A DNA stretch of 64,000 nt from NCBI GenBank assembly GCA_963696935.1, contig CAVOMB010000056.1:3331-67330 (forward strand), in the 5' to 3' direction. Of this stretch, positions 15,127-33,819 are shown one piece after another. The notes under the pieces are model-generated. The model did not search any database and was not told the origin of the DNA. It saw only the letters and a list, made by a program, of their open reading frames with translations. The translations under genes and the position numbers were made by a program. Position 1 is the first letter of the stretch; each line of letters opens with the position of its first letter. Source of the DNA: an uncultured Thermoleophilia bacterium (GTDB lineage Bacteria > Actinomycetota > Thermoleophilia > UBA2241).

Positions 15127-15242
15127 GCGCGCGGCCAAGTATACGACGGGGCCGCACATCGGCGTCGCGCCGGTCGTGGACACACGCATCCGAGGTACGG
15201 CGCCGCGCGCGCCTCGAGGCGCGGCACCCTCGTAGGCAAGAA

Positions 15243-15273
15243 GGGGCGGGAGGCACTCCCGGCCTCCCGCCTC
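15243..15273 (-). terminator. Hairpin terminator candidate after pseudopilin cassette A
   Basis: GGCGGGAGGC / GCCTCCCGCC forms a 10-12 bp stem about 30 nt after the stop at 15302. On the minus strand it is followed by CCUUCUUGCC. Confidence 0.45.
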
Positions 15274-15301
15274 TCGCCGCTTCGTGCGACATGCAGCCTG
15301 T

Positions 15302-16480
15302 CTACTGCGGCTGCACCTCGCGCCATGTGTTCTTGATACGCCGCACCATCGACGGGAAGCGCTGGTCCAGGTTCGCGATGCAGTTGTCGTTGTAGAGGAT
15401 GTTAGGCGTTCCCTTCATGTCCTCGTTGGTGTTGGTCACCACCATTCCGTGGATGTCGCCGGTACCGTGTGACGTGTCCATCGGGCCCTCGGAGTAGATC
15501 ACACCCCAGAACTGGGCCGTGCCGCCCCAGCTCAGCGTGCTGCCTCCGAGAATCAGGAAGATGCCCGGCTGCGCCTCGGTGTTGAGGTTCGTGTTGCCCT
15601 GGATCTTGATTTCGGTCGGCGTCGGCGGGTCGATCACACACAGTCCGCTGCAGCCGCCCGTCGGCGCCCAGATGGGGTCTCTCGGGCTTGCCTCAGCGGC
15701 GCCCAGCGAGGTGAAGTACCGGCCATTCGACTGCGCGGTTGAGACAAGCGAGTCGACCAGCGCCTGCGGGAAGACGTCTTCGAGTGGGCTGATGTTGCTC
15801 CCGGTGATCTGTGCGATGCCGGACTGCGTGACGCTGGACGTCTCGATGGTGCCGCCCACCTGCACCGACGTCGTGGTCCCCGTCGGCGGTGCCACTTCGA
15901 TGCGGATCTTGGGGTTGTTGCCTTGGCCGTTGCTGGTCAGGTTGCCGCCGGCCCAGAGAGGGATACCTCGCGGAAGCGACATCGTCATGTACGACCGCTC
16001 GACCTCACTGACCACCCGCGTCTTGCGCTTGCCGACACCCGCCTGCGCGACCATCCACATGATCCCGTCGGGCTGGTTGGGATTGGTAGGGCCGCCCTTG
16101 TCGTAGTGGACCAAGGTGTCAATCGGGTCCAGGTTGTCATACCACTCCACGGTGATGAACTGGCCACTGGTGGGGTTCGGGTACTCGCTGGCGCTGAAAC
16201 GGTTGCGGAATGCGGTGGCGTTGAACGTCGGGACGGCGGCGGACGATGTCGGCCAACTGCTGCCCAGCAAGGCCATCCCGGCATCCAGCCCCGCCTCGGT
16301 CACCGTGAACGACTTGACGTGCTGATGTGTGTCGCTGGTCCCGCCTTGGACGTTGGCCGTGAGAGCCACCAGCGCCGCGGCGGAGATCGCGAGCGCCGCG
16401 ACCACTCCGATGATCAGCACGAGGCCGGCGCCACGCTCACGCTCGCGTGTGTCGCTCCCCATGAGACGTGCCCACCCCAT
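15302..16480 (-). CDS. PilX-N-domain pseudopilin-like protein (cassette A, 392 aa)
   Basis: RBS GAGGTGA. N-terminus ...RERERGAGLVLIIGVVAALAISAAALVAL (PilX_N type hydrophobic helix). The C-terminus ends ...NTWREVQPQ, like its paralogs. Confidence 0.7.
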   Translation of the reverse strand: MGWARLMGSDTRERERGAGLVLIIGVVAALAISAAALVALTANVQGGTSDTHQHVKSFTVTEAGLDAGMALLGSSWPTSSAAVPTFNATAFRNRFSASEYPNPTSGQFITVEWYDNLDPIDTLVHYDKGGPTNPNQPDGIMWMVAQAGVGKRKTRVVSEVERSYMTMSLPRGIPLWAGGNLTSNGQGNNPKIRIEVAPPTGTTTSVQVGGTIETSSVTQSGIAQITGSNISPLEDVFPQALVDSLVSTAQSNGRYFTSLGAAEASPRDPIWAPTGGCSGLCVIDPPTPTEIKIQGNTNLNTEAQPGIFLILGGSTLSWGGTAQFWGVIYSEGPMDTSHGTGDIHGMVVTNTNEDMKGTPNILYNDNCIANLDQRFPSMVRRIKNTWREVQPQ

Positions 16481-16484
16481 AACA

Positions 16485-17216
16485 TCACCTCGTGTTCCGC
16501 AGCTGCGCGGTGGTGCGCAGATGAGTGTAGGTGGGCGACTTGCCCGGGTTCAGGTCGACCAGCAGGTTGAGCTCGACGGCGCGGATCTGAGCGCGGTCGT
16601 CCGTGCCGCGTACGTCGCTCTCGTGCGCCAGAGTGCCGTCGCTGTTGTAGTAGATGTACGTGAAGACCGGAGTCGGGTTGGTGCTGCTGGGTGTCGTCAG
16701 GTTGATGACGTTGGACGCCAGCAGTTGCCCGCCCTCGCCGTTTGTCTGCTCGGACAGGTCAAAGCCCGACTCGGCAGTCTCATCGACACCGGAGATGGAA
16801 TTGCCGGTGCCGAGGTCCTGGAAACGCCAGAGCTGCCCGTTGGAATACAGGCGGTACATGACGAGGCGCGGAGTCACGTTGGCGAACTGGTTCCCGGTCT
16901 TGTTGAAGGTGGTGTACAGCTCGATGTAGAACGGTCGCGCGCGGACAATGCCGACCTCACTGATCGTGGCCGGGGGCTGCTCGACATCGCGGGTCTCCCG
17001 CTCCATTCGCGCCAGAGCCAGCCGCACGGTGTCGACCGTCTCATCACGCTTGGCCGTGGTCGCATACGAGCGCGAGAGAGCGAACCAGCTTAGCAAGATC
17101 ATCCCCGTCAGGAGCACGCTGATGCTCGCCGCCACGACGAGCTCGACCATCGTCATGCCGCCCTGGTCTCTCGCCTGCCTGGTCAGGGCCTCGTACGCCC
17201 TCCATCTGCAGTTCAT
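16485..17216 (-). CDS. Prepilin-type N-terminal methylation-domain protein, PilW-like (cassette A)
   Basis: Leader ...ARDQGG|MTMVELVVAASISVLL. Paralogous to 21050-21742 and 25758-26546 (shared motifs ...VFTY.Y...G...IR.V.L.L.VD.N...P....L.T....RN). The start could be ATG 17216 or the ATG at 17258. Confidence 0.7.
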   Translation of the reverse strand: MNCRWRAYEALTRQARDQGGMTMVELVVAASISVLLTGMILLSWFALSRSYATTAKRDETVDTVRLALARMERETRDVEQPPATISEVGIVRARPFYIELYTTFNKTGNQFANVTPRLVMYRLYSNGQLWRFQDLGTGNSISGVDETAESGFDLSEQTNGEGGQLLASNVINLTTPSSTNPTPVFTYIYYNSDGTLAHESDVRGTDDRAQIRAVELNLLVDLNPGKSPTYTHLRTTAQLRNTR

Positions 17217-17235
17217 CGCCGCACCACCAAGCCGA

Positions 17236-18972
17236 TCATGGATAGGTCGCGGTCCCATTACCGCTGCCGGTGTCGACGACCTCGGTCTTCAGTTGGTTCG
17301 CATGGCTGAAGGTCGTCGACTTCATGAAGAACACGTTGTACTGACCGGCGGGGAGGCTGGACCAGGTGATGCTGTTGCCGTTCTTCTTGACCCAGGTTCC
17401 CGAGGGCGGGGTGGTCGAGGCGGTGCCGGTCGTGGTGTACCACTTGGACGTGGCGACGTTCTGCACCCAAACGTAGGCCTGGGTCGTGCTGTTGTTCGTG
17501 ACTTTGATCTGGCGCAAGACGAGCGGGCCTGTCGTGACGGGGCCCGCACTGGCATAGGCCGAGGAGTTACCGGCCACGTCGACCGCGCAGACCCTGTAAG
17601 TATAGGTGGTCGCCCAGTTCGCCGTAGTGTCATCGTAGACGACGCCTTGATACAGGACCTGCAACTGCTGCCATGTGGAGTTGCCGCTCTGCTGGCGCTC
17701 GAGTGTGTATCCCGCGAGCCCGCTTGTAGGGGTGCCGGAGTCCGTGGACGTCGCCCATGTCAGATGCACGACCGCCTGTCCAGAGACGGGACTTGCCGTG
17801 AGCGGCGACGGGACGCTTGGCGGGTCCTTGTCTGAGGCCGGGTTGGGAAGCGCGGTCACCGCGGCAGTGAATGGGCCGACGAGATTGTTCGTATCGACCG
17901 TGCGCACCTTGTAGTAGTAGGTCGTCCCGTTCGTGACGCTGTTGTCCGGGTACGAGGTCGTCGTCGCCGCCTCGCCGATCTTCGCGTAGCTGACACCGTT
18001 CGTCGAGCGATACACCTCGTACTTCAGCACGCTGCCGGAGGCGGCCGTGGTCCACGTGAGGACCACCTGGCCGTCGTAGCTGTTTGCCACGAGGTCGGTC
18101 GGCGCGGGCGGCGCCAGGTTCTGGTAGTACATGGCGATGCTCCACGGCATGCCCTGACTGCGTGAGCCGAAGCCGGCAACAGCGACCGCCTGGATGATGT
18201 ACGTCCCGTTGGGCGCGTTCGAGTCATCCCACGAGTACTGATAGTGACCGGTATCTGTGGTGCTGACCGGCAGGTCGACCTTCTGCGAGGCGACCGCCGT
18301 TCCGTTGGCGGGCGTGATGGTGAAGAGCACGTATCCACGGTCCGTCGCCGTCGCACTCTGGTTCATGCTGGCGATGTCCTCGGGTGCGAGGTAGGCATCG
18401 ATGACAAGCGGCCCGCTGACGATCTTCGTAGTGTTCGTCGCGGCATCCGTCTGCAGCACACCGTCCGGGCCGAGGTCCACCCGAAGGATCTGCGGTCCGG
18501 CATACTGCTTGGAGATCATCGTACTGAGCTCGACCGGCTTCACCGGCTTTGGGGGAGCCGTCCATCGCGCCGTCACCGTGACTTGCTTGTACTTCTCCGT
18601 GCCGGGAGTGGCGCCGGCGTTGCCGGCGGAGTCGATGTAGTCGACACGGTAGGAGACGACGAACGTGCGATTCCCACCCCCGCCAGTCGTCCAGCCGACA
18701 GTGGTGCCGAACTGGCCGTTGGGGATCGTGTTGTTCGTGAGGGCGGTCTGTTCGATCTGGTCGTAGTCCAGCCCGCGGATCTTCTCGAGCTTGTCCTGCG
18801 CCAGTTGCAGTGCCGCATTTCGCACGACATCGCCCGAGGAGGCCTCGGATGCGCTCACGAACACTGGCACCAGCGCCGTGAACGCAAGTCCTGCGATAAT
18901 AATAGTGACCAGCAACTCCACGAAGCTGAAGCCAGCTCCGCGGTCACAGGCCCGCCAGAAGTGCCTGTTCAT
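17236..18972 (-). CDS. Prepilin-type protein, PilV-like N-domain fused to two fibronectin-III-like repeats (cassette A, 578 aa)
   Basis: ATG 18972 follows GGAGG. Leader MNRHFWRACDRGAG|FSFVELLVTIIIAGLAF. The module AQDKLEKIRGLDYDQI is PilV-like. FN3-like segments are PPAPTDLVANSYDGQVVLTWT...YEVYRS...YYYKVRTVD and PPSVPSPLTASPVSGQAVVHLTW...YTLERQ...YTYRVCAVD. Confidence 0.75.
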   Translation of the reverse strand: MNRHFWRACDRGAGFSFVELLVTIIIAGLAFTALVPVFVSASEASSGDVVRNAALQLAQDKLEKIRGLDYDQIEQTALTNNTIPNGQFGTTVGWTTGGGGNRTFVVSYRVDYIDSAGNAGATPGTEKYKQVTVTARWTAPPKPVKPVELSTMISKQYAGPQILRVDLGPDGVLQTDAATNTTKIVSGPLVIDAYLAPEDIASMNQSATATDRGYVLFTITPANGTAVASQKVDLPVSTTDTGHYQYSWDDSNAPNGTYIIQAVAVAGFGSRSQGMPWSIAMYYQNLAPPAPTDLVANSYDGQVVLTWTTAASGSVLKYEVYRSTNGVSYAKIGEAATTTSYPDNSVTNGTTYYYKVRTVDTNNLVGPFTAAVTALPNPASDKDPPSVPSPLTASPVSGQAVVHLTWATSTDSGTPTSGLAGYTLERQQSGNSTWQQLQVLYQGVVYDDTTANWATTYTYRVCAVDVAGNSSAYASAGPVTTGPLVLRQIKVTNNSTTQAYVWVQNVATSKWYTTTGTASTTPPSGTWVKKNGNSITWSSLPAGQYNVFFMKSTTFSHANQLKTEVVDTGSGNGTATYP

Positions 18973-19254
18973 ATGCCCCTGCCTCCGGATAGACGGGGAG
19001 TTCTCTATTCGCTCTATCGGCGGGGAGGGAAAAAGCATGAGCCCTCTCCGGCTCATCCGTTGCCCCACCGGGCGCATGTCCTAGTAGGTTCGCCCGCCTC
19101 GCTTGTCCACCTTCGCCGCGGTCCTTTGCCAGTATCCCCGGGAAGGTGTACAGACGACCATTGTGACACTACTTCCCGGGCGACGAAAGGTGCGACGCGC
19201 TGGTTCGCCCCCCGGAACGACTACGTCGCCGGCGGAGACAACGCGGAAAGAAGA

Positions 19255-19343
19255 GACGGGGCGCCGGGCGGCTCTGGCGACCACCCGGCGCCCCTGGGAT
19301 CCTCACAGTCGCCTGTTCCGGAGGCAGAGAGAGGTGTGAGGAC
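19255..19343 (-). repeat. Conserved ~90-nt post-PilX element, copy 1 (two hairpins, the distal one terminator-like)
   Basis: Near-identical to 23302-23392. The hairpin GGGGCGCCGGG(15 nt)CCCGGCGCCCC at 19258-19294 is followed on the minus strand by UCUCUUCUUUCC. A second hairpin, CCTCACA...TGTGAGG, spans 19301-19341. Confidence 0.7.
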
Positions 19344-19376
19344 CGTGCTCAGCAGGGTTGCGCCCCGTGTCGGACC

Positions 19377-21038
19377 TCAGTTGACGTTGGGCGAAAGCTC
19401 CTGCCAGGTGCCGGGCACCATGTTCGTCGCCGTTGTGGCCGCGGTGATCTGCAGGTTGGCTAGCGCCCGGGGATCGTACCCGACGTTGCCGTTGTTGGTG
19501 AAGCGGACGTCGCCCTTGGACATGACGGCACCGCGGACGAAGAACGTGCCGTCGCCGTCGTTGTCCAGGTTCACGCCGCCGTCCATGTTGACCACCAGCC
19601 CGGTGAACACGGCATCGGCGCTCAGTTGGATGGCTCGCGTGGCCGAGGTCCCGTCGTCGATGCCCAGCAGCACCATCGGGTCGTTCACGGTGCCGAACCC
19701 GCCGCTGCCCGATGTGGTGATCTGCCCGGGTGAGACGAGGATCGGGCAGAGGATCTGCGCGTTATTACCCGAGAAGGTAACCGCTCCCTGGACATACGTC
19801 GGCCCGAAGACGTGACTGAACGGGCCGCCCGACGACGTGAAGCTCCCGCCCACGTACAGAGGGCCCGGATCCTTGGACGCGTCGGTGTAGTCGGTCGTCT
19901 TGACCGTCAGAGCGCCGCCCCAATTGACGGTCCCTCCGACGTAGATCGGCCCGAACTGGCTGGTGCCCGAAGGTCCGGAGATGGTGAAGTTGCCACCCAC
20001 ATACAGGGCGGTGGCGTTGGTGTGGGTATTACCGCCCAGCGTGAGATTGCCGGTCACGTACAGCGACCGGAAGTTGAACGTGCTCTCGCCGCCGCCCAGC
20101 GTGAGGTTGCCGTTGACGACCAGGTCGGTGCTCGCGTTGTACGTTTGCGGGCTGGTCTTCTGCAGTTGGGTGATCAGCGCTGCGTCCGCCACGGTCCCCG
20201 CCGCGTTCGCCTTGGTCGGCGTCCCCTGTTTGGCCTGCGCGGTCATGGTGTCGATGGTGGCCTGAGGAAGAACGGTGCTCAGCGGCGGTACGCCGCCGGT
20301 CCCGGCCACTGCGGGGTTGATGCCGACTTTCGGATTGTAGACCGTACCGTTGGTCTTGACCTGGAGCGTGGTGGGACCACCGCTCGGCGAGAGATCCGTG
20401 TTCCAGTTGCCGGCGAAGTTGCCACCGGCGTAGATGGCCGCGTTCTTGTCTGTGTCAGCCACCCACGACGTGCTATTGGGGTCCGGGTACTTGATGCCGA
20501 AGGCGTCGCCGCCGCCGCCCGTGAACGCGACGTTACCGTCGCTGTAGATAGCGGCGGCGGGCAGGCTCAGAGAGCCGGTCGAGTTCACCTGGCCGACCAG
20601 CGTCCTAATCCGCGCGGTCTTGCCGTTGTAGGTGGCCGCGGCCTCGACCCACAGCTTGCCGTCGGGCGTGCTGGGCGCGGTCGGTCCGCCCTTGTCCCAG
20701 GTGATCGCCTCGTTCACCGTCGCCTGGTTGTCGTACACCTTGACCGTGAGAGGCGGTCGACTGCCCGACGGGTACGTGGCGTCGTAGGCCGAATTCAGGG
20801 TGCTCTGGGCGAACGCGGCGTTGGCTGCCGGCCAGGTCGTGGTGCGCACGGCCATCACTGCGCTGTCAAGACCGGCCTCGGCGTAGTTGAAGGCTTCGTC
20901 ATGATGCCGCTCGGCCGCCGTCGCCCCCTGCTGGTTGGCGAGCACGAACACTGCCGTGCCCGCGAGGATGGCAAGCGTGGCGGTGATGCCGAGCAGCAGG
21001 ATCAGCGCCGCTCCCGACTCAGAGGTGTGTCTCGGCAT
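19377..21038 (-). CDS. PilX-N-domain pseudopilin-like protein with a Gly/Thr/Asn-rich beta-solenoid-like repeat region (cassette B, 553 aa)
   Basis: ATG 21038 follows GAGGAGGAG. N-terminus MPRHTSESGAALILLLGITATLAILAG. Repeats such as LYVTGNLTLGGNTHTNATALYVGGNFTISGPSGTSQFGPIYVGGTVNWGG. Ends ...GTWQELSPNVN. Confidence 0.7.
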   Translation of the reverse strand: MPRHTSESGAALILLLGITATLAILAGTAVFVLANQQGATAAERHHDEAFNYAEAGLDSAVMAVRTTTWPAANAAFAQSTLNSAYDATYPSGSRPPLTVKVYDNQATVNEAITWDKGGPTAPSTPDGKLWVEAAATYNGKTARIRTLVGQVNSTGSLSLPAAAIYSDGNVAFTGGGGDAFGIKYPDPNSTSWVADTDKNAAIYAGGNFAGNWNTDLSPSGGPTTLQVKTNGTVYNPKVGINPAVAGTGGVPPLSTVLPQATIDTMTAQAKQGTPTKANAAGTVADAALITQLQKTSPQTYNASTDLVVNGNLTLGGGESTFNFRSLYVTGNLTLGGNTHTNATALYVGGNFTISGPSGTSQFGPIYVGGTVNWGGALTVKTTDYTDASKDPGPLYVGGSFTSSGGPFSHVFGPTYVQGAVTFSGNNAQILCPILVSPGQITTSGSGGFGTVNDPMVLLGIDDGTSATRAIQLSADAVFTGLVVNMDGGVNLDNDGDGTFFVRGAVMSKGDVRFTNNGNVGYDPRALANLQITAATTATNMVPGTWQELSPNVN

Positions 21039-21049
21039 GGTGCTCCTCC

Positions 21050-21742
21050 TCAATGCTGGGGGGCGTTGCGCGGCCGCACCGTAGTCTGGAGGCCCGCGTA
21101 GCTCGGCGTATGAGACAGGTTCGCGTCCACGATCAGGTGGATCTGGACGGAGATGATCTTGGAGAGCTCGGCGGTGGCCATGCTCGTGGCCGTCGTGAAG
21201 TTGCCCGAGCCGTCGCGGTAGCCGTAGGTGAACACGGGCGTCGGCGACTCCGTGCTTGGGACGCTGGTGTTCACCACGTTGCGGGCGAGGACCATCTTGC
21301 GGTCGGCGCTGTCGAAGCCTCCGCTCGCGTTGGTGTCGCGCTGCCAGTACAGCGTCTTCTGGACAGCGGCGCCGCTCGTGTCCAGGTAGATGCGCGTGAG
21401 ACGGAGCGCGCCGGTCCCGCTCCCGTCCGACCGTTGGAGCGGGTCGTTGAATGCAGAGCGATAGTCAATCTCGGTGGACGTGGCCACCGTGAACGGCGAG
21501 CTCGCCGGAGTGGTGATCGCCGCAGGCTGGGCGTCGCGGATCTCGCGGGCGGCGCGGGAGATCGCGTCCCTCGCCTCGCCGTTCGCATTGTCGGTCCGCA
21601 CGCCGTTGGCGTAGGACCGCTGGAGCGAAGTCCACCCCATGATCAGCATCGTGGTCACTACGCCCAGGATGATCATGGAGACGAGTAGTTCGATCAGGCT
21701 GATGCCGCGCTGACGACGGCGCGTGTCTGTGAGGCGGCGCAT
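21050..21742 (-). CDS. Prepilin-type methylation-domain protein, PilW-like (cassette B, 230 aa)
   Basis: MRRLTDTRRRQRG|ISLIELLVSMIILGVV. ATG 21742 overlaps the upstream stop by 1 nt. Confidence 0.75.
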   Translation of the reverse strand: MRRLTDTRRRQRGISLIELLVSMIILGVVTTMLIMGWTSLQRSYANGVRTDNANGEARDAISRAAREIRDAQPAAITTPASSPFTVATSTEIDYRSAFNDPLQRSDGSGTGALRLTRIYLDTSGAAVQKTLYWQRDTNASGGFDSADRKMVLARNVVNTSVPSTESPTPVFTYGYRDGSGNFTTATSMATAELSKIISVQIHLIVDANLSHTPSYAGLQTTVRPRNAPQH

Positions 21743-22644
21743 CACAGGGTGAACGTGTAGCTCTGGTTGCTGGTCGTGACGTACACGGTCTGCGTGAGCG
21801 TCTTCTGGTTCCCCGTGTTGCCGTTCTTGTAGTAGTTGCAGGTGACCAAATACGTGCCGGGGGCCAGACCGCTCCAGACAGAGGGCACAGACGTGGTCGG
21901 CACCAGCATCGACGGCGTCGCGGGCGCGTTCGGAGTGACGTCGATGCGCACCACGGTCACGCCCGACGACGAGTTCACGTAGTTGTTCGTAACCAGGATG
22001 GTGAGACTGTAGGTGGACGCCGACGTGGGACTCGGCGAAGGCGAGGGGCTGGCGCTCGGAGACGGTGACGGAGAGGCGGAGGAGCTCGCGCTCGTGCCTT
22101 GCGGGTTCATGACGATCGTCGTCAGGCTCACAGGCCGCACCGGCGACGGCGGAGCGGTCCACGACACCGTCACACTCACCCGCTTGTAGTTGACGGCTCC
22201 GGTGCTGGGCACGTTCTCGACCGAGTAGACGACCGAGTACGGCTTGGCCGAGCCCGCCGGCGTGAAGGTGCTGCCGAACTGCCCGCCGGCGAACGTGCCC
22301 GACTGCAGGTGCGACGCGTCGTTGACGATCTGGTCGAAGGCGAGCAGGCGGATCTTCTCGATGCGGTCCTGGGCGATGTTGTTCGCGACATTGCGCGCCC
22401 TGTCCCCCGAAGACGCCTTCTGGGCGCTTACGAACACCGGGACGAGCGCGGCGAAGACGATGCCGGCGAGGACGATGGTAACGAGGAGCTCCACGAGGCT
22501 GAAGCCCGCCGAAGATGAGCGAAGCGACTCGGAACGCAGGTGCGCCGGGTGCACCGCAAGAGCGCGCGGCGCGCGACGATGGGTGAATGTACCGGCGCGC
22601 TCTCCCGCGGGCGACGCGCCGCCTCTCTCTGCCAGGCTGTTCAC
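21742..22644 (-). CDS. Prepilin-type methylation-domain protein, PilV-like (cassette B, 300 aa)
   Basis: GTG 22644 follows GGGGAG. ...SSSAG|FSLVELLVTIVLAGIVF. AQDRIEKIRLLAFDQI. An SPSPSPSASPSPSPSP linker is followed by a beta-rich C-domain. The leader is unusually long, so the start is uncertain. Confidence 0.7.
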   Translation of the reverse strand: MNSLAERGGASPAGERAGTFTHRRAPRALAVHPAHLRSESLRSSSAGFSLVELLVTIVLAGIVFAALVPVFVSAQKASSGDRARNVANNIAQDRIEKIRLLAFDQIVNDASHLQSGTFAGGQFGSTFTPAGSAKPYSVVYSVENVPSTGAVNYKRVSVTVSWTAPPSPVRPVSLTTIVMNPQGTSASSSASPSPSPSASPSPSPSPTSASTYSLTILVTNNYVNSSSGVTVVRIDVTPNAPATPSMLVPTTSVPSVWSGLAPGTYLVTCNYYKNGNTGNQKTLTQTVYVTTSNQSYTFTL

Positions 22645-22935
22645 ATGGTCTCCCCAATTGCTTCAGGGGGAGCTCTGTGCGCGGGGTGCCAGCCCCGCAC
22701 TGCTCCACATAGAATGCTATCGGCAAGGAGAGGCGCGTCCATGAGGCCTGTCGAACCTCAGACTCGCCACTGGTTCACACGAGCCGCGCCTGCCCCGCCG
22801 GGCTTTGCCCTCCCATCTTCTCCTTGGGGGTCGGCTCTCCTACCATCACCGGACTCAGGCGATTCGAAGCTGGAACATCCGTTTGGGCGCTCTGGGGGAG
22901 AAGTTCGGAAGAGCGCCGATCGGCGTGTTCGCGCG

Positions 22936-23259
22936 TCAGGGCAGCACGTGGACCAGGTGCCCCGCGACCACCAGGAGGACGAGGTTGAGTGCCAGCAGGG
23001 CGATGATAGCCACGACCAAGGCCCTTTTGACCCCCGCCCTGCGCTCAACATCCGGCGAGCCCGTCGCGCTGCTCGCCGCCCTCGAACCCACCCACGCACG
23101 CGTGCCCTCGTCCGCCCAGACGAGGTGGCCCTGCCGGTCGTACTCCATGACGTCCGCGGCGGTCACCGCCCCATGGCCTTCGAGAATGAACGCGCCGTCC
23201 GCCCAGGTGATCCGCGTTCCCTGCCAAGCCGTTGTGGGTCCGAATGTCGCTATCAGCAT
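22936..23259 (-). CDS. Hypothetical protein with a C-terminal TM anchor (107 aa)
   Basis: High GC3. C-terminal helix ALVVAIIALLALNLVLLVVAG. No recognisable motif. Confidence 0.4.
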   Translation of the reverse strand: MLIATFGPTTAWQGTRITWADGAFILEGHGAVTAADVMEYDRQGHLVWADEGTRAWVGSRAASSATGSPDVERRAGVKRALVVAIIALLALNLVLLVVAGHLVHVLP

Positions 23260-23301
23260 GGGTCGTGTCGGGTGGGATGTCGGGTGGGCGGCGAGAGAGT
23301 G

Positions 23302-23392
23302 GACGGGGCGCCGGGCGGCTCTGGCGACCGCCCCGGCGCCCCTGGATCCTCACAAGTTGCCTGTTCCGGAGGCAGAGAGAGGGATGTGAGGA
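23302..23392 (-). repeat. Conserved ~90-nt post-PilX element, copy 2
   Basis: gacggggcgccgggcggctctggcgacc...cctgttccggaggcagagagag..tgtgagga aligns with 19255-19343 with only a few substitutions or indels. It starts 31 nt after the stop at 23423. Confidence 0.7.
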
Positions 23393-23422
23393 TCGTCTCC
23401 TGCGGACTCTACCCGCATCTTC

Positions 23423-25747
23423 TCAGTTCACCGGCAACTGTTGCCAGGAGCCGGGAAGTGTCTGGGTCACGGTCGTCTTGGTCTTGAGCGACGAGGTTGC
23501 GATGTTGCCGACCACCGTCATGTTGTAGGCGATGGAGTCGGAGTTGCTCAGGACGATGTCGCTCATCGACATGCCGCTGGTGTGACTCGGGTCGTAGGGG
23601 CAGCCTGCGAACACGGCGCCCTCCACCGTCGGCGTCGAAGCGTCGGTGTCGCCGGAGAAGTCGATGGTGGATTCGTTGATGACCATGAGGCCGAAGTACG
23701 TACCGATGTTGGTCCAGTCGACCACCTGCGGGTAGATGCCATTGTTGTCGCACACGAAGAAGTACACCATCGGAACGAGCCGCGAGCCGAACCTGATGTT
23801 CCCGCCGACCTGAGTCTTCTCCGTGGTCGCTAACAGCGGACACATGACGGTCGAGGCCGCGTCGCTGTCGAACACCACACTGGTGCTGGAGTTGCCCGGC
23901 ACCCAGATGTTGCCGTACTTGTCGCTGAACGTGCCGTCCCGTTTGAAGTAACGGCCGAGCCACATCGGCTTCGGCTGGGCCTCGTCTGAGGCAGGATTCG
24001 CGTTGTAGGCCACGGGATCGATCGACCACACGGAGGCCTTGCCGCCCCAGTTGACGTCCCCGTGGTTCGCGGAGGGGTTGGAGCTGCTGCTGTACGCCGC
24101 CACGTACACGGCGCCGAGCATGTCCGTGACCGCTGTCGAGGAGCCACTGATGGTGAAGTCGCCGTTGGCCGTCACGCCCGTCGCCTTCACGACGACGTTG
24201 CCGCTGAACGTCAGCGTCTTGGTGGTGCCGCTGGTGTAAATCAGCCCGAAGGTGTCGGTGTAGGTGGTGCTCCCTGATGTGGGTCCGTTCAGCCTGACGT
24301 TGCCGGCGCCGCAGAGAGAGGTCGCGGCGTTCAGCGCCACGGGCCCCGACACGCTGAAGTCGCTCAGGCAGTAGATCTGGCTGATGGCGTCGGCGACGCT
24401 CGTGGTCTGCGTGTTGTTGATGGTGAGCGCCCCGGCGCAGTACAGGGCGGCGGCACTCAGTTCGACCCGGTCCTTGACGGTGCTGGCCGACGAGCCGGCA
24501 ACGTACAGCGTCCCGGAGAGGGTCTGCGATACCGTCGCGCTGGTGGGTCCGGTGATCGTCAGCTTGCCGCCCACGTGGATGGACCGGGCGTTCAGCGTGA
24601 TGGGGCCGGTGATCGCCAGGTCGCCCGTCACGTACAGGTCGCGGAAGGTGAAGGAGCGGCCGGTGGTGCCGTTGCGCTGGAGCGTCAGGCTGCCGTTCAC
24701 CTTGTAGTCGGTGCCTGACACGTTCACCGCCGTGGTCGAAGAAGTGCTCGTCCAGCTCGAGAGGGTGGTCGCGTCGGGCGTCGACGTGGGGACCGGCGTC
24801 ATGTCCGCAGGCGCCGTCGGCGCCGTGGCGGGCGTGCCGCCCTCCTGCGCTTCGTTGACGAGGCTCGCCTGGGCGGCCTGGTCGAAGTAGTCGCTCAGGA
24901 ACCCGACCGTGCCGGCCCCGATGAAGACGTTGGTGAACTTGGGGCTGGCGGTGTCGGGGACCTTGTGGTTGGGTGCGCTGGTGTAGAGCGTGCCCGTGGT
25001 GCCGAGCCTGACGGAGCCGTTCACCTTGATGCCCAGGGTTTGCTTGGTGGCGCCGGGCCCGGCCATGTTGGCGGTGGTGTTGACAGTGAGCCGGCCGACC
25101 TCACCCCAACTGCTGGACATCGACGGCGTCCACGTGCCGCCGGCGGACATGTAGGTGGGCATCGACCCATCCGTGATGGGGCTGCCGTCGGCGTTGACCG
25201 CGTAGATGTCGCTGCTGCCGCCCATGTAGATGCCGGTGTCGCTGTAGGTGACGGCCTTGGGCAGCGCCGCGGCGAACGGCAGGGTGACCTGCTGGATGAG
25301 CACTCGCTCGCGCGTCTTGGTCGCCCTGCTGTCCGGCGCGGTGGCGGTGGCGTCGACCCACATGCGGTGATCGCCGTTGGAGTCGTAGCCGATCAGGTTG
25401 GCCCCGTCGCTGCTGAAGTCGATGGTCGCCACGTTGTCGTAGATCTTGTACGCGACCGTCGAGCCGGGCGGGAACTGGTTGTTGAACGCCGCCGCGAGGT
25501 CGGCCTGGGTGAGCCAGGTCTGGCCTGAGGCGGTCGGCATGGGGCGGGCGATCTTGAGCCTCTGGACGGCCGAGTCGAGGGCCGCCTCGCCGCCGTAGAA
25601 GGACTGCGTGCGGGCGCGCGTGATCGCAGTGGCCTTGCTCTGGTTGGCGATGACGAAGACGAGGGTGGCCGCCAGAATGGCGAGCGCCGCCGTCATGCCG
25701 ATGAGCATGATCAGCGCGGCGCCTCTCTCGTTGGAGTACCTGCGCAT
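23423..25747 (-). CDS. PilX-N-domain pseudopilin-like protein, very large (cassette C, 774 aa), beta-solenoid-like repeats
   Basis: ATG 25747 follows AGGAGGAAGG. N-terminus MRRYSNERGAALIMLIGMTAALAILAA. Repeats such as DLYVTGDLAITGPITLNARSIHVGGKLTITGPTSATVSQTLSGTLYVAGSS. Ends ...GSWQQLPVN. Confidence 0.7.
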   Translation of the reverse strand: MRRYSNERGAALIMLIGMTAALAILAATLVFVIANQSKATAITRARTQSFYGGEAALDSAVQRLKIARPMPTASGQTWLTQADLAAAFNNQFPPGSTVAYKIYDNVATIDFSSDGANLIGYDSNGDHRMWVDATATAPDSRATKTRERVLIQQVTLPFAAALPKAVTYSDTGIYMGGSSDIYAVNADGSPITDGSMPTYMSAGGTWTPSMSSSWGEVGRLTVNTTANMAGPGATKQTLGIKVNGSVRLGTTGTLYTSAPNHKVPDTASPKFTNVFIGAGTVGFLSDYFDQAAQASLVNEAQEGGTPATAPTAPADMTPVPTSTPDATTLSSWTSTSSTTAVNVSGTDYKVNGSLTLQRNGTTGRSFTFRDLYVTGDLAITGPITLNARSIHVGGKLTITGPTSATVSQTLSGTLYVAGSSASTVKDRVELSAAALYCAGALTINNTQTTSVADAISQIYCLSDFSVSGPVALNAATSLCGAGNVRLNGPTSGSTTYTDTFGLIYTSGTTKTLTFSGNVVVKATGVTANGDFTISGSSTAVTDMLGAVYVAAYSSSSNPSANHGDVNWGGKASVWSIDPVAYNANPASDEAQPKPMWLGRYFKRDGTFSDKYGNIWVPGNSSTSVVFDSDAASTVMCPLLATTEKTQVGGNIRFGSRLVPMVYFFVCDNNGIYPQVVDWTNIGTYFGLMVINESTIDFSGDTDASTPTVEGAVFAGCPYDPSHTSGMSMSDIVLSNSDSIAYNMTVVGNIATSSLKTKTTVTQTLPGSWQQLPVN

Positions 25748-25757
25748 GACCTTCCTC

Positions 25758-26546
25758 CTAGCTGCCACTCGCGTTGCGAAGGAGCACGGTGGTCGTCGTG
25801 TCGATGTACTTGGGTGCGTGGTAGATGTTGGCGTCGATGATGACCCGTGCACGGACACCTACGATGGTGCTCAGCGTGATCGCGCCCTCTGTGTCATTGT
25901 CGCCCCACTGAAGTGGGCTGGTCGCGGCGGTGCGCCAGGCGTACCGGAACAACTGGTACGCGAGTTTCTCAGGGCCACTGGGAGTGTCGTCGTAGTAGGA
26001 CCTGCTGACGACGTTGCGCGCCAGGACGACCTGCTTGTCGCCGCTGTCGGTGAACCCCGCCGGACCGGCTGCTGAGCTGGACGCGTTGCCGTTCATGTCG
26101 CGCTGCAGGTAGAGCGTCTTCTGCGGCGAGGTCCCCGTCGTGTAGTCGAGGTAGATGCGCGTGAGGTGCACCGCGCCGATGCCGGTGCCGTCGGTCGTGA
26201 TGTTGGTCGAGCCCAAAGACGAGTAGAACTTGATCTCCCACGGGCCGGCGAAGGTGATCGGCGGCTGCCCCACGGGCATCGCGGTCGTCGTGGCGGTCGG
26301 TGTGGGCGTGGGCGGCAGGACGTTGGGCTGGGCGGCACGCAACTCGGTACCGATGCGCGCCGACGCGTCGCGTGCCACGGAGGTGGCTCTGTCCGCCTGC
26401 ATGGCGAACACCGCGCTGCGCTGCAGGTTGACCCACACCATGACCAGCATGGTGGTGATGATGCCGAGGATGATCATCGAGATGAGCACCTCGATGAGCG
26501 TCAGGCCGGCCTCGCGGCCTCCACGGGAGTGAGGTGGGATCCGCAT
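25758..26546 (-). CDS. Prepilin-type methylation-domain protein, PilW-like (cassette C, 262 aa)
   Basis: MRIPPHSRGGREAG|LTLIEVLISMIILGII. The C-terminus parallels the other PilW-like paralogs. Confidence 0.75.
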   Translation of the reverse strand: MRIPPHSRGGREAGLTLIEVLISMIILGIITTMLVMVWVNLQRSAVFAMQADRATSVARDASARIGTELRAAQPNVLPPTPTPTATTTAMPVGQPPITFAGPWEIKFYSSLGSTNITTDGTGIGAVHLTRIYLDYTTGTSPQKTLYLQRDMNGNASSSAAGPAGFTDSGDKQVVLARNVVSRSYYDDTPSGPEKLAYQLFRYAWRTAATSPLQWGDNDTEGAITLSTIVGVRARVIIDANIYHAPKYIDTTTTVLLRNASGS

Positions 26547-26556
26547 CGCCGAGGTC

Positions 26557-27373
26557 TCAGTCGCCGCCGGGGTACGTGTCGAACTTGATCTTGCCGCTGC
26601 TCCACAGGCGGAACGGTGGCGCGGCCATGACGTAGGTAGCCTTGCTGCTCTTGCAGAACACCGAGTACGTGTAGTTGGGGCCGCCGACCAGGTTGGAGAA
26701 CTTGACAGTCGGATACGTGGCGTTGGGGATCGCCCCCGGCGGTGAGTCGGGCAGCGGCGACGTGGTGGCGTTGGGGGTCACGTTGGTCTGCACGCGCCGG
26801 AGCGTGACCCCGGGCGACACCACGTACGAGTGGGTGTCGAAGTAGACGGTGAGCGTCAGGTTGGTCGGCTCCCCATCGGTGACCGAGTTGGTCGTGGCCG
26901 ACGGATCGCGGACGATTGGTGTGGGCGGACATGATGAACGCCGTGTCCGCCCTGCCGACCGTCACCTTGACGTACTTCTGCAGCGAAGTGGGCTCGGGCG
27001 TCGGGGTGACGTAGTAGTGCACGTTGTACGCCCCCGACTCACCGACCAAAGTGTAAGTGGGGCCGAACCGCCCGTCCCCGAACGGGTTGGCCGTCGGGCT
27101 TGGCGAGTAGTTGAGATTCTCCTCCGTGATGTCCGTGTAAGGGAGCAGACGGATCTGCTCGATGCGGTCCTGGGCGATGGTGTTGGAGTCCACACGTACC
27201 TCGTCCTCTGAGGTGCGGGAGAGCGCGTTCGCGAAGAACGGGACCATCGCGGTGAATACCACACCGGCGATGATGACCGTGACCAGAAGCTCGATGAGGC
27301 TGAAGCCGCGCGTCGACCCGGTGAGGGATGCCAAACGTTTTGCCGTCAGGAGACGGCTGTGTGGGGAGCGCAT
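26557..27373 (-). pseudogene. PilV-like prepilin (cassette C) interrupted by a 1-nt frameshift near 26915-26920
   Basis: ATG 27373 follows GGAGGT. ...GSTRG|FSLIELLVTVIIAGVVF...AQDRIEQIRLL... stays in frame up to ...FIMSAHT. The paralog-like C-domain (IVRDPSATTNSVTDGEPTNLTLTVYFD...KFDTYPGGD*) continues in another frame, ending at 26557. Confidence 0.65.
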
Positions 27374-27476
27374 GCGCTCACCTCCGCTGCCAGGCTATGG
27401 AGGCCCCCCTGAACACGTCCCCGTACCGGTGAAACGCGGCTCCACCCGCTGCCGGCGAGCCCGAGGCGTCAGGACC

Positions 27477-27494: not shown

Positions 27495-27692
27495 CCGCCC
27501 TATTCGGACGGGGCATGGTTCTTCATGAGCAACAGGTATTGCCTCGTCCGACAACGATACGTACTACATTAGACGGACGTTCCTTTCAGAACGCCCGGCC
27601 TGAGGCTGGGAACAGCAAATCGATAAGAAGCAACGCCCGGCGACAGCCACTCGAGCTTCGTCCCGGAACATCCGTCTAGAAGGGGTTGACGG

Positions 27693-30708: not shown

Positions 30709-33700
30709 CTAGTTGTGGACCGCCTTGTCCGCGCGCAGCATCGCCGTGAAGCGCTGGACCATGCGCGGATCCAGCTCGTGCGAGGCGCGCCCGCGGAGAT
30801 CGGCGACGCTGTCGCCGTTGCGCGCGCCGGGGTCCCAGGCACGGCACACGGCGAAGGCGCGGGCCACGCGAGGTATGTCCGCCCCGCGCCGGCCCTCCGG
30901 GTAGCCTCCGCCGTCCCAGCGCTCGTTGCCGTACACGAGCGCCGCCACGGCGTTCTGGCGCACCTCGTTCGCAGCCGCGGCGGCGCTGCCGCCGCTGCCG
31001 AGGACCGCCTGGATACCGTCCTGGACCGCCGCGCCGGTCTCGTGCACGGCGAGGGCGGTGACGAGGCCGGCCGTCTCCGGCTCGCTCAACCCGATGAAGG
31101 CTGCGAACCGGCGGCCGGCGGCCGCCAGCTCACCCTCGAAGGAGGCCGTCGCGGTCGCGATGACGTCGCTGTAGAGACACACACGGTTGCGGCCGCCGGT
31201 CTTGGCGCGCAGCAGCGCGGCGTCGGCGGCCCCCAGCACCCCGTCCGCATCCTTCGCCGACTGGGGGTAGGCGGAGACGCCGATCGACATGGTCACGTGC
31301 AGGTCCGGGTGGCCCGGGTCCAGCCGCGCCACGGAGGCGCGGATGCGCTCGGCCAGCGTGGTGGCCTCCTCGAGCGTCGTCCGCGGCAGGATCATCGCGA
31401 ACTCCTCGCCGCCGTAGCGAGCGAGGTAGTCGGACTCGCGTGAGCAGCTGCGCAGCACGCCGGAGACCGCGCGCAGAACGTCGTCGCCCTTCTGGTGGCC
31501 GATGGTGTCGTTGACCGCCTTGAAGTGGTCGAGGTCCATCATCAACAGGCAGAAGTGCTCGCCGTACCGCCCGGCACGGCTGACCTCGGACTTGAGCGAC
31601 TCGTGGAAGTGCTTGTAGTTGTGGATGCCGGTGAGGCCGTCGCTGATGGCCTGCCGCTCCATCTCCTCGTACGTGCGCGCGTTCTGGATGGCGATGGCGG
31701 CCAGATTGGCGAACAGTGCGACCGGCTCGAGGTCTTCGGCGGAGAAGGTGCGACCACCAAGGCGGTCGAGGCACAGCACGCCGGTCACCTTGCCGAGGAC
31801 GCGCAGGGGCACGACGATACTGGCCTGCGGCACGTCCTCACTGGTGCCCGGGATGTGCACACCTCGAGGGTCGCGCGCCATGTCGTTGACCAGTTGCGCC
31901 TCGTCGTGGCGGACGACCCAGCCGGCGAGGCCCTCGTCTATGGAGATGCGGAACAGCTCGTTGAGCTCCGCGTTCTGGTCGCGCGAGTAGATGCACACCA
32001 GCTCGCGCGTCCCCTCGTCCAGTAGACGGATGTCCATGGCGTCGTAGTCGACGATCACCTTGAGCATCTCGGTGATCCGCACGAACACCTCGCGCTGGTC
32101 GAGCGTGCTGAGCAGCAGCGTGCTGACGGTCATGAGCTCGTGCTGGATGCCCAGCTGGCTCTCGAGCCTCGCCGATGTGGTCTCGAGCGCGTCGTACTGG
32201 CGTGCGTTGCGGATGGCCAGCGCCGCCAGGTTCGCGAACAGGCGCGCGGGCTCCAGCTCGCGCGCCTCGAACGTGCGGCCGCCCAGCCGGTCCATGGTCA
32301 TGATGCCGATGACCTCGTCCCCCACCGAGAGCGGCACCAGGATGCAGGCCTGCACCTCGTCCTGCTCCGTGCCGGGGATGTGGACCGCCCGCGGATCCGC
32401 AGCCATGTCGTTGATGAGCTGCGCCTCGTTGTGGCGCACCACCCAGCCGCTGATGCCGACGTCCATGGGGATGGCGAAGTCGATGATCTCCTGACCGTCG
32501 TTCTCGTCGCGAGCGTAGAGAGCGACGAGCTGCTCGTGCGCCTCGTCCACGAGGCGCACGTCCATGGCGTCGTAGTCGACGATCTGCTTGAGCGTGTCGG
32601 CGATGTGCTCCAGCACCTCCGTCTGCTCGAGCGAGGAGAGCACGGCCCCGCTGGCGCTCAGCAGCTCATGGCTCAGCGCGAGCTGCTCCGCCAGCTGACG
32701 GGATGCCTTGTCGGCATCCTCGTACTGGCGGGCGTTGTGGATCGCGATCGCCGCCAGGTTGGCGAACAGCGTGACCGGCTCCAGCTCGTGCTCGGCGAAG
32801 GTGCGCTCGCCCAGCCGGGCGAGCGCGAGCACCCCGAGCACCGTGTCGCCGAGGGCCAGCGGCGCGACGATGCTGGCCTGGGACTCCCACTCCGTGCCGG
32901 GCACCAGCGCCCCGCGCTCGTCGCGGAGCATGTCGTTGACCAGCTGTGCCTCGTTGTGCTGGACGACCCAGCCGCTGACCCCGACGTCCAGCGGGCTGCG
33001 CCAGGACCGCATCTGCTCGGCATCCTCATCCGCGGCGAAGCCGCAGTAGAGCTCCTGGGCCTCCTCGTCGACGAGCCTGACCTCCAACGCGTCGTAGTCG
33101 ACGATCTCCTTGAGCAGCGTCGCGATGCGGGCGAAGACCTCGCGCGGCTCGAGGGTCGCGAGGAGCGCGCCGCTGACATCGAGGATCGCGTGCTGTAGGG
33201 CCAGCTGGGCCTCGAGCGCCGCGGTGGCCTCCTCCAGCGCCTCGTACTGGCGCGCGTTCTCGATGGCGACGGCCGCATGCGTGGCGAAGACCTCGAGTGA
33301 CTTGACCAGCTCGAGCGTAGGCAATTGCCTGTCCGCGGGATCGAAGAGGTCCAGCACGCCCATGAGCTGGCGGTCCTTGTCGTAGAGCGGCACGAACAGG
33401 TCGTCGTTGCTGCTCCACTCGTCGGGCCCGCGCGGGCCGAGGTCCAGCTCCGGCAGGTAGTGGAGCTCCTCGTCCGTCCAGTCGTGGCGGCGATGGTCAA
33501 CGAAGAACGACGAACCAATCTGATGCTTCTCGAGGAAGAGCTGGTCCCAGATGCGCTTCGGCACCGGCCGCTCGAAGAGGAGGCTGTCGTACTCCGGGAA
33601 CTCACCGACGGTGGCATGGACGGCAAACAAGCCTGAGGGCTCGCGCAGGTACACGCTCGCCTCGCGGAACCCGAACGTCTCGCTCAGCGCCGTGGCGATG

Positions 33701-33819
33701 ACGTGGACGATGGCGTCGAGCGTGAGGCTCGACTGCAGCTGATTGGCCAGCCTGATGAGGCCACGCAGAAGCTCCACCTCACCGTGCTCGGCCTTGCGAT
33801 TCCTGGTGCGAAACGCCAT
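30709..33819 (-). CDS. Four-GAF-domain diguanylate cyclase (GGDEF, GGEEF active site with RxxD I-site) carrying a degenerate C-terminal HD-GYP-like region
   Basis: ATG 33819 follows GGGGGA. There is one divergent GAF and three closely related GAFs (repeated ...IVDYDA.D.RL.DE...GWVV.H.EAQL.NDM..DPR...PGT...). GGDEF motifs: LTGIHNYKHF, RESDYLARYGGEEF. The tail contains NERWDGGGYPEG, but the HD is replaced by HE and the HHE by GNE. Confidence 0.8.
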   Translation of the reverse strand: MAFRTRNRKAEHGEVELLRGLIRLANQLQSSLTLDAIVHVIATALSETFGFREASVYLREPSGLFAVHATVGEFPEYDSLLFERPVPKRIWDQLFLEKHQIGSSFFVDHRRHDWTDEELHYLPELDLGPRGPDEWSSNDDLFVPLYDKDRQLMGVLDLFDPADRQLPTLELVKSLEVFATHAAVAIENARQYEALEEATAALEAQLALQHAILDVSGALLATLEPREVFARIATLLKEIVDYDALEVRLVDEEAQELYCGFAADEDAEQMRSWRSPLDVGVSGWVVQHNEAQLVNDMLRDERGALVPGTEWESQASIVAPLALGDTVLGVLALARLGERTFAEHELEPVTLFANLAAIAIHNARQYEDADKASRQLAEQLALSHELLSASGAVLSSLEQTEVLEHIADTLKQIVDYDAMDVRLVDEAHEQLVALYARDENDGQEIIDFAIPMDVGISGWVVRHNEAQLINDMAADPRAVHIPGTEQDEVQACILVPLSVGDEVIGIMTMDRLGGRTFEARELEPARLFANLAALAIRNARQYDALETTSARLESQLGIQHELMTVSTLLLSTLDQREVFVRITEMLKVIVDYDAMDIRLLDEGTRELVCIYSRDQNAELNELFRISIDEGLAGWVVRHDEAQLVNDMARDPRGVHIPGTSEDVPQASIVVPLRVLGKVTGVLCLDRLGGRTFSAEDLEPVALFANLAAIAIQNARTYEEMERQAISDGLTGIHNYKHFHESLKSEVSRAGRYGEHFCLLMMDLDHFKAVNDTIGHQKGDDVLRAVSGVLRSCSRESDYLARYGGEEFAMILPRTTLEEATTLAERIRASVARLDPGHPDLHVTMSIGVSAYPQSAKDADGVLGAADAALLRAKTGGRNRVCLYSDVIATATASFEGELAAAGRRFAAFIGLSEPETAGLVTALAVHETGAAVQDGIQAVLGSGGSAAAAANEVRQNAVAALVYGNERWDGGGYPEGRRGADIPRVARAFAVCRAWDPGARNGDSVADLRGRASHELDPRMVQRFTAMLRADKAVHN

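Follow-up and report, generated by a model that had tools for sequence, protein, structure and literature searches.

A 64-kb stretch of high-GC DNA (~64-72%) from an uncultured Thermoleophilia bacterium (Actinomycetota), referred to below as the window, contains nine genes on the minus strand, between positions 15302 and 27373, that form three consecutive triads, here designated A, B and C. Each triad encodes, in the same order, a PilV-like protein (V), a PilW-like protein (W) and a protein related to PilX, GspK and ComZ (X), all of them putative minor pilins of type IV pili. The preliminary description of this DNA had placed three tandem V-W-X units here, and the nine genes are indeed found at the claimed places, with all of the quoted motifs present. 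In the direction of transcription, the predicted genes, with lengths in amino acids (aa), are:

26557..27373, minus strand: VA, PilV-like prepilin consisting of a pilin module and one C-terminal beta domain, with a 1-nucleotide (nt) insertion near 26919
25758..26546, minus strand: WA, PilW-like prepilin, 262 aa, N_methyl score 25.7 bits, 40% identity to WB
23423..25747, minus strand: XA, PilX/GspK/ComZ-type tip pilin, 774 aa, with a long beta-solenoid
21742..22644, minus strand: VB, PilV-like prepilin of 300 aa in which a Ser/Pro linker precedes the single C-terminal beta domain
21050..21742, minus strand: WB, PilW-like prepilin, 230 aa
19377..21053 (alternative start 21038), minus strand: XB, PilX/GspK/ComZ-type tip pilin, 553-558 aa
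17236..18972, minus strand: VC, modular PilV-like prepilin, 578 aa
16485..17258, minus strand: WC, PilW-like prepilin, 243-257 aa, 31% identity to WB (E 4e-29)
15302..16480, minus strand: XC, PilX/GspK/ComZ-type tip pilin, 392 aa, with a short beta-solenoid

Within the triads, the genes overlap (by one base in the case of VB and WB) or lie 4-19 nt apart, and every X gene is followed by a GC-rich hairpin, so that the tight packing and the hairpin after each unit were described correctly. The same holds for the paralogy of the three units: in BLASTP comparisons, the V proteins are 36-49% identical (E 6e-27 to 2e-36), the W proteins 24-40% (E 7e-10 to 7e-49) and the X proteins about 30% (E 3e-9 to 4e-41). 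Judging by these alignments, the triads are true but old paralogues. A recent duplication or an assembly artefact was ruled out, given that the paralogues are only 24-49% identical and that the three-set layout recurs in four other metagenome-assembled genomes (MAGs). The window was also compared with a 14.9-kb Logan contig (L001) that represents a second assembly of the locus; the two differ solely in the length of a run of G (G5/G6) at 19208, within the intergenic sequence that precedes VC.

All six V and W proteins contain a class III prepilin motif, and a six-frame scan of the whole 64 kb with a regular expression for class III signal peptides returned six matches, exactly those of the six V and W genes. 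In the V proteins, the motif takes the form G|FS[LF][IV]ELLV and is accompanied by AQD[KR][IL]E[KQ]IR; in the W proteins, it reads G|MTMVELVV, G|ISLIELLV and G|LTLIEVLI. With the N_methyl profile (PF07963; gathering cut-off 21.2 bits), VA (23.4 bits), WA (25.7 bits), VB (26.9 bits) and WB (33.3 bits) score above the cut-off and VC (17.3 bits) and WC (17.9 bits) just below it, in the case of VC despite the motif G|FSFVELLV. A profile search of Protein Data Bank (PDB) sequences yielded only the pilin N-terminal helix for W, the same helix and the Fn3 domains for V, and only spurious repeat matches for X.

The V proteins share a pilin module of ~150 residues, which gives weak matches to PilV (TIGR02523; E 1e-4 for VB) and to the N-terminal region of HpsC and is followed by variable C-terminal domains. 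VA and VB each have a single C-terminal beta domain of ~90 residues, in VB preceded by a Ser/Pro linker that is apparent from the alignment; the start of VB, MNSLAERG, is conserved across the alignment of its orthologues. VC consists of the pilin module, a FlgD-Ig-like domain, two Fn3 domains and a C-terminal beta domain, in this order, with profile matches to Fn3 and titin (E 4.6e-18), FlgD, and the Fn3 region of CbhB (E 1.6e-16). The modular type IV pilins PilB and PilC of Streptococcus sanguinis similarly consist of a pilin module fused to C-terminal adhesive or Ig-like domains; VA, VB and VC (with its two Fn3 domains) follow the same fusion principle with different grafted domains.

The 817-nt span of VA is not one open frame: the frame shifts near 26919, where VA has one extra base (CACACCAATCG vs CACA-CGATCG) compared with the intact gene of the 86%-related locus L005. 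The lengths previously given for the PilV-like proteins, 272, 300 and 578 aa, therefore hold for VB and VC, whereas the 272 aa of VA arise only after repair of the frame. The insertion is also present in L001 and, being found in two assemblies, is probably a real frameshift in this population; it would spare the pilin module of VA and remove the C-terminal domain.

The W proteins are conserved over their full length. All 242 homologues of WB that we collected are named prepilin or pseudopilin by their source (e.g. PulJ, PulG), and WB itself has a weak match to the Pfam PilW family (E 0.076). The AlphaFold2 model of WB has a predicted local distance difference test score (pLDDT) of 83.5 and consists of a 54-residue N-terminal helix (16-69) followed by about ten strands.

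The X proteins have N-termini that share E[RS]GA[AG]L and are devoid of the glutamate at position +5 (ERG|AALIMLIG, ESG|AALILLLG, ERG|AGLVLIIG), and C-terminal motifs of the forms NTWREV, GTWQEL and GSWQQL. XB matches PilX_N (PF14341) with E 0.0028 and 18.0 bits, below the cut-off of 25.5, and the N-terminal regions of XA (E 5.8e-5) and XB (E 7.9e-5) match GspK (NF037980) at ~22 bits vs a cut-off of 130; XC has no match to either the PilX_N or the GspK profile. Some distant homologues of X do carry PF14341 and the Joint Genome Institute (JGI) name PilX. The family as a whole is moderately large: a profile search returned 1778 clusters at E <= 1e-3, of which 124 remain at E <= 1e-30.

XC was modeled with AlphaFold2 from 41 homologues (pLDDT 88; predicted TM-score 0.70). 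In the secondary-structure string of the model, a 60-residue helix (15-74) is followed by a three-strand sheet (109-164), a beta-rich solenoid region (~175-364) and two closing strands (376-389), where the conserved NTWREV motif is found. The top PDB match in a Foldseek search was ComZ of Thermus thermophilus (6QVI; E 6.9e-5, probability 0.96), and the next matches were the beta-solenoids of DUF3494 ice-binding proteins (probability up to 0.99). ComZ combines a GspK-like pilin domain with an ice-binding-type solenoid, has been argued to be located at the pilus tip and to bind the PilV-like pilin PilA2 (PMC6561018); the pair of matches obtained with XC is the pair published for ComZ and also for cyanobacterial PilX. 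XA and XB are homologous to XC in the N-terminal 170 residues and at the C-terminus (BLASTP), and both contain repeated solenoid-like units, which in XA coincide with the DNA repeat families D6-D8, D14 and D16, so both appear to be versions of XC with longer solenoids. With the XC model as the guide, the X proteins are predicted to be PilX/GspK-type tip pilins with an inserted beta-solenoid.

Three other assignments were tried and rejected. Accessory pilins of the Tad/Flp type found no counterpart, with no match to TadE (PF07811) or Tad (PF13400) at E <= 0.1 in the nine proteins. The Verru_Chthon cassette (TIGR02596-02599) matched N-terminal helices at 15-19 bits vs cut-offs of 70-256. A pseudopilus of a type II secretion system was set aside, the host being a monoderm; monoderm bacteria are not known to have such a system.

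The sequences flanking the triads include the following features relevant to transcription:

27500..27529 (pattern 27504-27529), minus strand: promoter-like site of triad A, CTCAT-N16-TCCGAATAG, sigma-28/WhiG-type with one mismatch in the -10 element
23305..23394, minus strand: double hairpin terminator after XA, fold -70.2 kcal/mol, z -3.0
22717..22745, minus strand: promoter-like site of triad B, CTCAT-N16-GCCGATAG, a match to the pattern
19259..19345, minus strand: double hairpin terminator after XB, a 15-pair stem followed by GTCTCTTCTT (terminator scan)
19014..19041, minus strand: promoter-like site of triad C, CTCAT-N15-GCCGATAG
15245..15271, minus strand: hairpin terminator after XC, upstream of the tRNA-Val gene at 15052-15126
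30709..33819 (with its promoter-like site, to 33949), minus strand: GAF-GGDEF-HD gene (four GAF domains; cyclic di-GMP, c-di-GMP), ATG at 33819, two genes upstream of triad A

The promoter-like sites are conserved in the orthologous upstream regions of related loci (contigs designated here by numbers preceded by L): that of triad A in L005-L008, that of triad B in L005-L010 and L013, and that of triad C in all nine such regions, even in the distant L012, L015 and L017, where the identity of the W proteins is down to 34-51%. Only two copies of the motif GCCGATAR exist in the 64 kb; they precede VB and VC and are on the gene strand. The composite promoter pattern is enriched in the window (10 matches vs 4.3 expected, a count reached in none of 100 shuffles), and across 13 related loci it has 32 matches on the gene strand vs 6 on the opposite strand. 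XA and XB are followed by copies of one ~90-nt double hairpin, which form the direct repeat D9 (82% identity). Each set is thus predicted, from a conserved sigma-28/WhiG-type promoter-like site and a hairpin terminator, to be its own transcription unit, as had been suggested on the basis of the hairpins.

The actinobacterial WhiG consensus consists of a -35 element xT(C/A)Ax, a spacer of 16 nt and a -10 element GCCGA (PMC13595943). In its relaxed form, this consensus is fit exactly by the sites of triads A and B, whereas triad C has a spacer of 15 nt. It is also fit by a further site, CTCAAGCAATCCGCCGGGACTGCCGAAAC (33921-33949, minus strand), that precedes the GAF-GGDEF-HD gene; in L009, L014 and L015, the orthologue of this gene has a conserved copy of the motif before it. 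The GAF-GGDEF-HD gene is possibly co-regulated with the triads. The strict Rubrobacter/flagellar consensus, TAAA-N13-18-GCCGATAA, has zero matches in the window with up to 2 mismatches. In Rubrobacter, WhiG, RsiG and c-di-GMP drive three promoters in a type IV pilus cluster and several genes for cyclases and phosphodiesterases, and homologues of WhiG and RsiG have been reported in cultured Thermoleophilia (PMC8325347). Given the promoter-like site of each set and the site of the same type before the diguanylate cyclase gene, we infer that all three sets are members of a pilus regulon of the c-di-GMP/WhiG type, comparable to the one in Rubrobacter. The 5' leaders that precede VB and VA (~22660-22710 and 27400-27450, minus strand) are ~70-130 nt long and contain conserved hairpin segments, e.g. 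GTGGAGCAGTGCGGGGCTGGCACCCCGCGCAC, that are retained across L005-L009; no riboswitch was detected in them, an Rfam scan of 14800-27800 having returned the tRNA-Val only.

The triads recur in related genomes. WB is 86% and 77% identical to its counterparts in the nearest species representatives, MAG contigs that bear the label 'uncultured Thermoleophilia bacterium'. For the genome scan, a narrower W alignment was used, the first one having been too diverse. The order of genes in the syntenic loci is GGDEF, UPF0182, triads, META, kinase, regulator and GT4. A comparison of the cassette number across relatives, which the preliminary description had proposed, showed one, two or three triads at the same place. 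Three are present in L005, L006, L007 and L008, at least two in L009, L012 and L016, and one in L010 (type B), in L011, L013 and L014 (type A), in L015 and L017 (type C-like), and in L020. The triads in related MAGs are always complete and in the order V-W-X, and V type and X type always co-occur, W being less type-specific. Thus, whole triad sets are gained or lost between lineages. A small open reading frame (ORF) between triads A and B has conserved counterparts only in L005 (87%) and L007 (55%), which are the closest relatives, matches no Pfam family and is not clearly a member of the system:

22936..23259, minus strand: ORF of 107 aa with a C-terminal hydrophobic helix, also a gene call in L001

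A distant X homologue, P0341, led to a subfamily whose members are often named PilX by JGI, two of its NCBI members belonging to MAGs of the Solirubrobacteraceae and the Thermoleophilaceae. Four genomic contexts of this subfamily were read. Three of them (L023, L025 and L026, three other Thermoleophilia contigs, one of them labelled Solirubrobacteraceae) have a diverged homologous triad flanked by a pilin gene on one side and pilM/pilD on the other; the triad in the fourth, L022, is an orphan. The pilin gene that precedes the machinery-linked triads encodes 143-344 aa; the 153-aa product in L023 begins with G|FTLIELLVV. The downstream genes include a PilN-like one (INLLP N-terminus) in L023 and one with a faint PilO match in L025. 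The V, W and X proteins of L023 are similar to VC, WC and XC of the window with E values of 7e-11, 3e-14 and 1e-10, respectively. In L023 (6811-13143) and L025 (4018-13290), sites of the form CTCAAG-N15/16-GCCGATA, all on the gene strand, precede pilA, pilM and pilN, and in L023 only also V, which suggests that type IV pili are under WhiG-type control in Thermoleophilia as well as in Rubrobacteria. No PilB or PilC was seen in the window or in the machinery-linked contigs, and a literature search for pili in Solirubrobacterales returned nothing specific. The homologous triads within pil clusters are the strongest evidence that the triads of the window are genuine type IVa minor-pilin sets that would form one regulon and are detached from the machinery; together with the motifs and the N_methyl matches, they uphold the earlier assignment to PilV/PilW/PilX-type minor pilins.

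We interpret the locus as three old paralogous sets of type IVa core minor pilins encoded away from the machinery, the likeliest role of which is to provide three alternative tips on one machine; we put the probability of this reading at about 0.7. Alternative tips appear likeliest because it is V and X that differ most in type and size between the sets and W that differs less, and such a use of the sets is plausible. The V protein would be a PilV/GspI-like prepilin with extra C-terminal Ig/Fn3-type domains, the W protein a PilW/GspJ-like prepilin, and the X protein a PilX/GspK/ComZ-like one in which the beta-solenoid interrupts the pilin fold, which is closed by the conserved C-terminal strand ...TW(R/Q)E(V/L). 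By analogy with GspIJK, PilVWX, ComZ-PilA2 and the cyanobacterial V/W/X sets, V and W would be cut by a PilD-type prepilin peptidase, and V, W and X would associate via their N-terminal helices to form an initiation complex in the membrane. The trio would then prime the polymerization of the major pilin, carried out by a PilB/PilC/PilMNO machine whose genes lie elsewhere, and stay at the pilus tip, with the X solenoid exposed there and taking the role of the PilY1 plug or adhesin, as proposed for cyanobacteria, and with the Fn3/Ig modules of V exposed as well. More speculatively, the three sets could confer three tip specificities in binding, or three filament types or pilus functions, on one machine, and the common promoter type could result in co-expression and hence in a mixed pilus population rather than a switch.

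Several observations weigh against this interpretation. As had been stated, there is no pilus assembly gene or major pilin in the 64 kb: among the other called ORFs of the window, Pfam scans detected no PilB/T, PilC, PilD, PilM-Q or further pilin, and the prepilin scan adds no candidate for a major pilin. In the 20-kb flanks of seven syntenic loci, pilus assembly families are likewise absent among the listed Pfam families (top 25 of 45). There is no fourth minor pilin of the FimU/FimT/GspH type, each set having three genes and the window no further prepilin motif, and no PilY1-like domain was found in the window proteins by Pfam or profile scans. No whiG or rsiG gene is present in the window, and, since the strict consensus finds no match there either, the identity of the sigma factor is likewise something we infer. 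The single promoter type of all three sets argues for co-expression over switching. The matches of X to PilX_N and GspK are all under the curated cut-offs. At the level of predicted folds, ComZ is the best match of XC at a sequence identity of 11% and a low TM-score of 0.21; the WB model has no significant match in the PDB (best E 0.53), so that the PilW/GspJ-like label of W is drawn from gene order, the weak Pfam PilW match, homology and source annotations. Finally, with VA frameshifted, set A may be impaired in this strain.

That the sets serve different filaments or machines, for example with the C set forming a DNA-uptake filament and the A and B sets adhesive or motility pili, is the most credible of the alternatives and nevertheless doubtful. 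This reading draws on the resemblance of XC to ComZ, a DNA-binding competence pilin (PMC6561018), on the cyanobacterial sets, which prime distinct filaments and in which PilX with an expanded solenoid goes with motility and exopolysaccharide and PilX_Com with competence, and on the weak HpsC match of VA. However, the likeness to ComZ exists at the fold level only, the profile search of PDB sequences finding nothing, and DNA binding by XC is not readable from the model. Neither the window nor the fetched flanks contain ComEA/ComEC, a second ATPase or a second major pilin.

It seems unlikely that the sets are redundant, decaying duplicates, one of which primes pili while the spares drift to loss without specialization. 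Such decay would be compatible with the VA frameshift in two assemblies, with relatives that manage with a single triad of any of the three types, with the same promoter type on all sets, and with the precedent of Myxococcus, where one of three clusters was undetected under laboratory conditions (PMC7541494). Yet types A, B and C are each recognizable as an orthologous group with intact genes in several MAGs down to ~35-50% identity, the type-specific parts, such as the Fn3 array of VC and the length of the X solenoid, are conserved within each type, and VA is intact in L005.

Less likely still is the more far-reaching proposition that three co-regulated sets build three functionally different filaments, e.g. 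for DNA uptake, adhesion to different substrates or motility, on one machine under the control of WhiG and c-di-GMP, with UPF0182 functionally linked to them. The UPF0182 gene (27693-30842 in the window), which encodes a large membrane protein, is located immediately upstream of the triads in all seven of the syntenic loci whose flanks were scanned, down to a W identity of 34%, as well as in L003 and the window; the machinery-linked triads of L023, L025 and L026 are not beside UPF0182. The adjacency may reflect plain synteny or a functional link. If this proposition were true, UPF0182, a widespread actinobacterial protein, would gain a role in pilus biogenesis or surface sensing.

It is highly improbable that the proteins are not pilus subunits at all and are instead membrane-anchored surface adhesins or pseudopilins of another system (Tad/Flp, a secretion pseudopilus or a Verrucomicrobia-type cassette): assembly genes are missing from the locus in 13 syntenic loci, there are weak N-terminal matches to Verru_Chthon cassette proteins C and D, and the triad of L022 is an orphan, but clusters of the form pilA...pilM-pilD-pilN contain homologous triads, G|F-x-x-x-E is the motif of a PilD-type site, TadE/TadG-type Pfam matches are lacking and the Verru_Chthon scores are far under their cut-offs.

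Much of what an alternative-tip system would require has precedents, so that the novelty of the layout was overstated in the preliminary description, which knew of no such system in high-GC Gram-positive bacteria. Multiple minor-pilin sets, PilX with a beta-solenoid, a solenoid-bearing tip pilin in ComZ and WhiG control of actinobacterial type IV pili are already published: several sets occur in Myxococcus (PMC7541494), two sets with solenoid PilX in cyanobacteria (bioRxiv 10.64898/2026.02.12.705559), and several families of actinobacteria, the sister class Rubrobacteria among them, are known to have type IV pili (PMC8325347, PMC13595943). Particular to the present locus are the uncultured Thermoleophilia host, the tandem of three minimal three-gene sets with neither a FimU-type pilin nor PilY1, the modular V proteins, and the fixed position beside UPF0182.

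Close parallels are found in cyanobacteria, where the filaments primed by the two V/W/X core sets differ in morphology and serve either competence or motility, and where all PilX proteins have a beta-solenoid between the penultimate and the last strands, which is proposed to be a tip plug that replaces PilY1 (bioRxiv 10.64898/2026.02.12.705559). Here as there, a genome contains several V/W/X sets with solenoid PilX, solenoid length varies by set, the deep split and strict co-occurrence affect V and X and not W, and the sets may lie away from the machinery. In contrast to cyanobacteria, the present sets number three rather than two, are arranged in tandem, have no FimT/FimU-type member, include V proteins with Fn3/Ig modules, and have a WhiG-type promoter-like site each.

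In the Thermus cluster pilA1-pilA2-pilA3-comZ-pilA4 (PMC6561018), ComZ resembles X in its GspK-like fold, the ice-binding-type solenoid before the last strand and the absence of a canonical prepilin motif, and two prepilin genes precede X, much as those of PilA2 and PilA3 adjoin comZ. However, Thermus has one set together with a GspH-like pilin and the major pilin, whereas there are three sets and no major pilin here, the host is a monoderm actinobacterium, and X is like ComZ at the fold level only. Myxococcus xanthus has three clusters (1-3), each encoding four minor pilins and PilY1, which are proposed to form priming and tip complexes with one major pilin and one machine (PMC7541494). These paralogous sets, too, are apart from the pil machinery; unlike the adjacent three-gene sets without PilY1 described here, they are dispersed. 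The GspI-GspJ-GspK and PilIJK-family initiation complexes (PMC13533445) have a three-protein core built on the same logic, with two prepilins, one small and one mid-sized, and a large cap that lacks Glu5, but the insert of GspK is alpha-helical and that of X a solenoid, and the correspondence of W to GspJ/PilW is not confirmed by the fold search. With regard to regulation, the WhiG-RsiG-c-di-GMP system of Rubrobacter (PMC8325347; PMC13595943), from a sister class of Thermoleophilia, likewise has sigma-28-type promoters before several pil units and diguanylate cyclase genes, one such cyclase gene being close to the pil genes, with the difference that the -35 element is CTCA here and not TAAA.

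Thermoleophilia are common, almost uncultured soil Actinomycetota, the surface appendages of which are essentially unstudied. The locus and the pilA-V-W-X-pilM-pilD clusters of its relatives indicate that Thermoleophilia use type IVa pili built on a core of three proteins, with a ComZ-like solenoid as the cap, that these genes are located behind WhiG-type promoters as in Rubrobacter, and that the number of tip sets varies from one to three by lineage. The locus does not open a new class of system; it makes Thermoleophilia a natural comparison set for the question of how tip complexes specify pilus function without an outer membrane.

The remaining called ORFs of the window, in addition to UPF0182 and the GAF-GGDEF-HD protein, were assigned by Pfam scans to BKACE, an aminotransferase, three EamA transporters, RACo, a lysine-aminomutase-like enzyme, several MTTB paralogues, an ABC transporter, a histidine kinase and a response regulator, two GT4 glycosyltransferases, and a sortase-domain protein, encoded at 62939-63703 on the plus strand, close to the right end of the window. 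One MTTB-family methyltransferase gene (51736-53891, plus strand) contains an in-frame TAG at 52780-52782 (...SFVAGL*SDSKLGD...), with positions 24-334 of the Pfam profile matched before this codon and 340-497 after it, and is directly followed, on its 3' side, by a gene for a B12-binding corrinoid protein. No tRNA-Pyl was found in the window by ARAGORN, and a literature search returned nothing specific. The arrangement looks like an MttB/MttC pair of the pyrrolysine type, here in an actinobacterial MAG. The window also contains the RACo gene and five MTTB paralogues that lack an in-frame stop.

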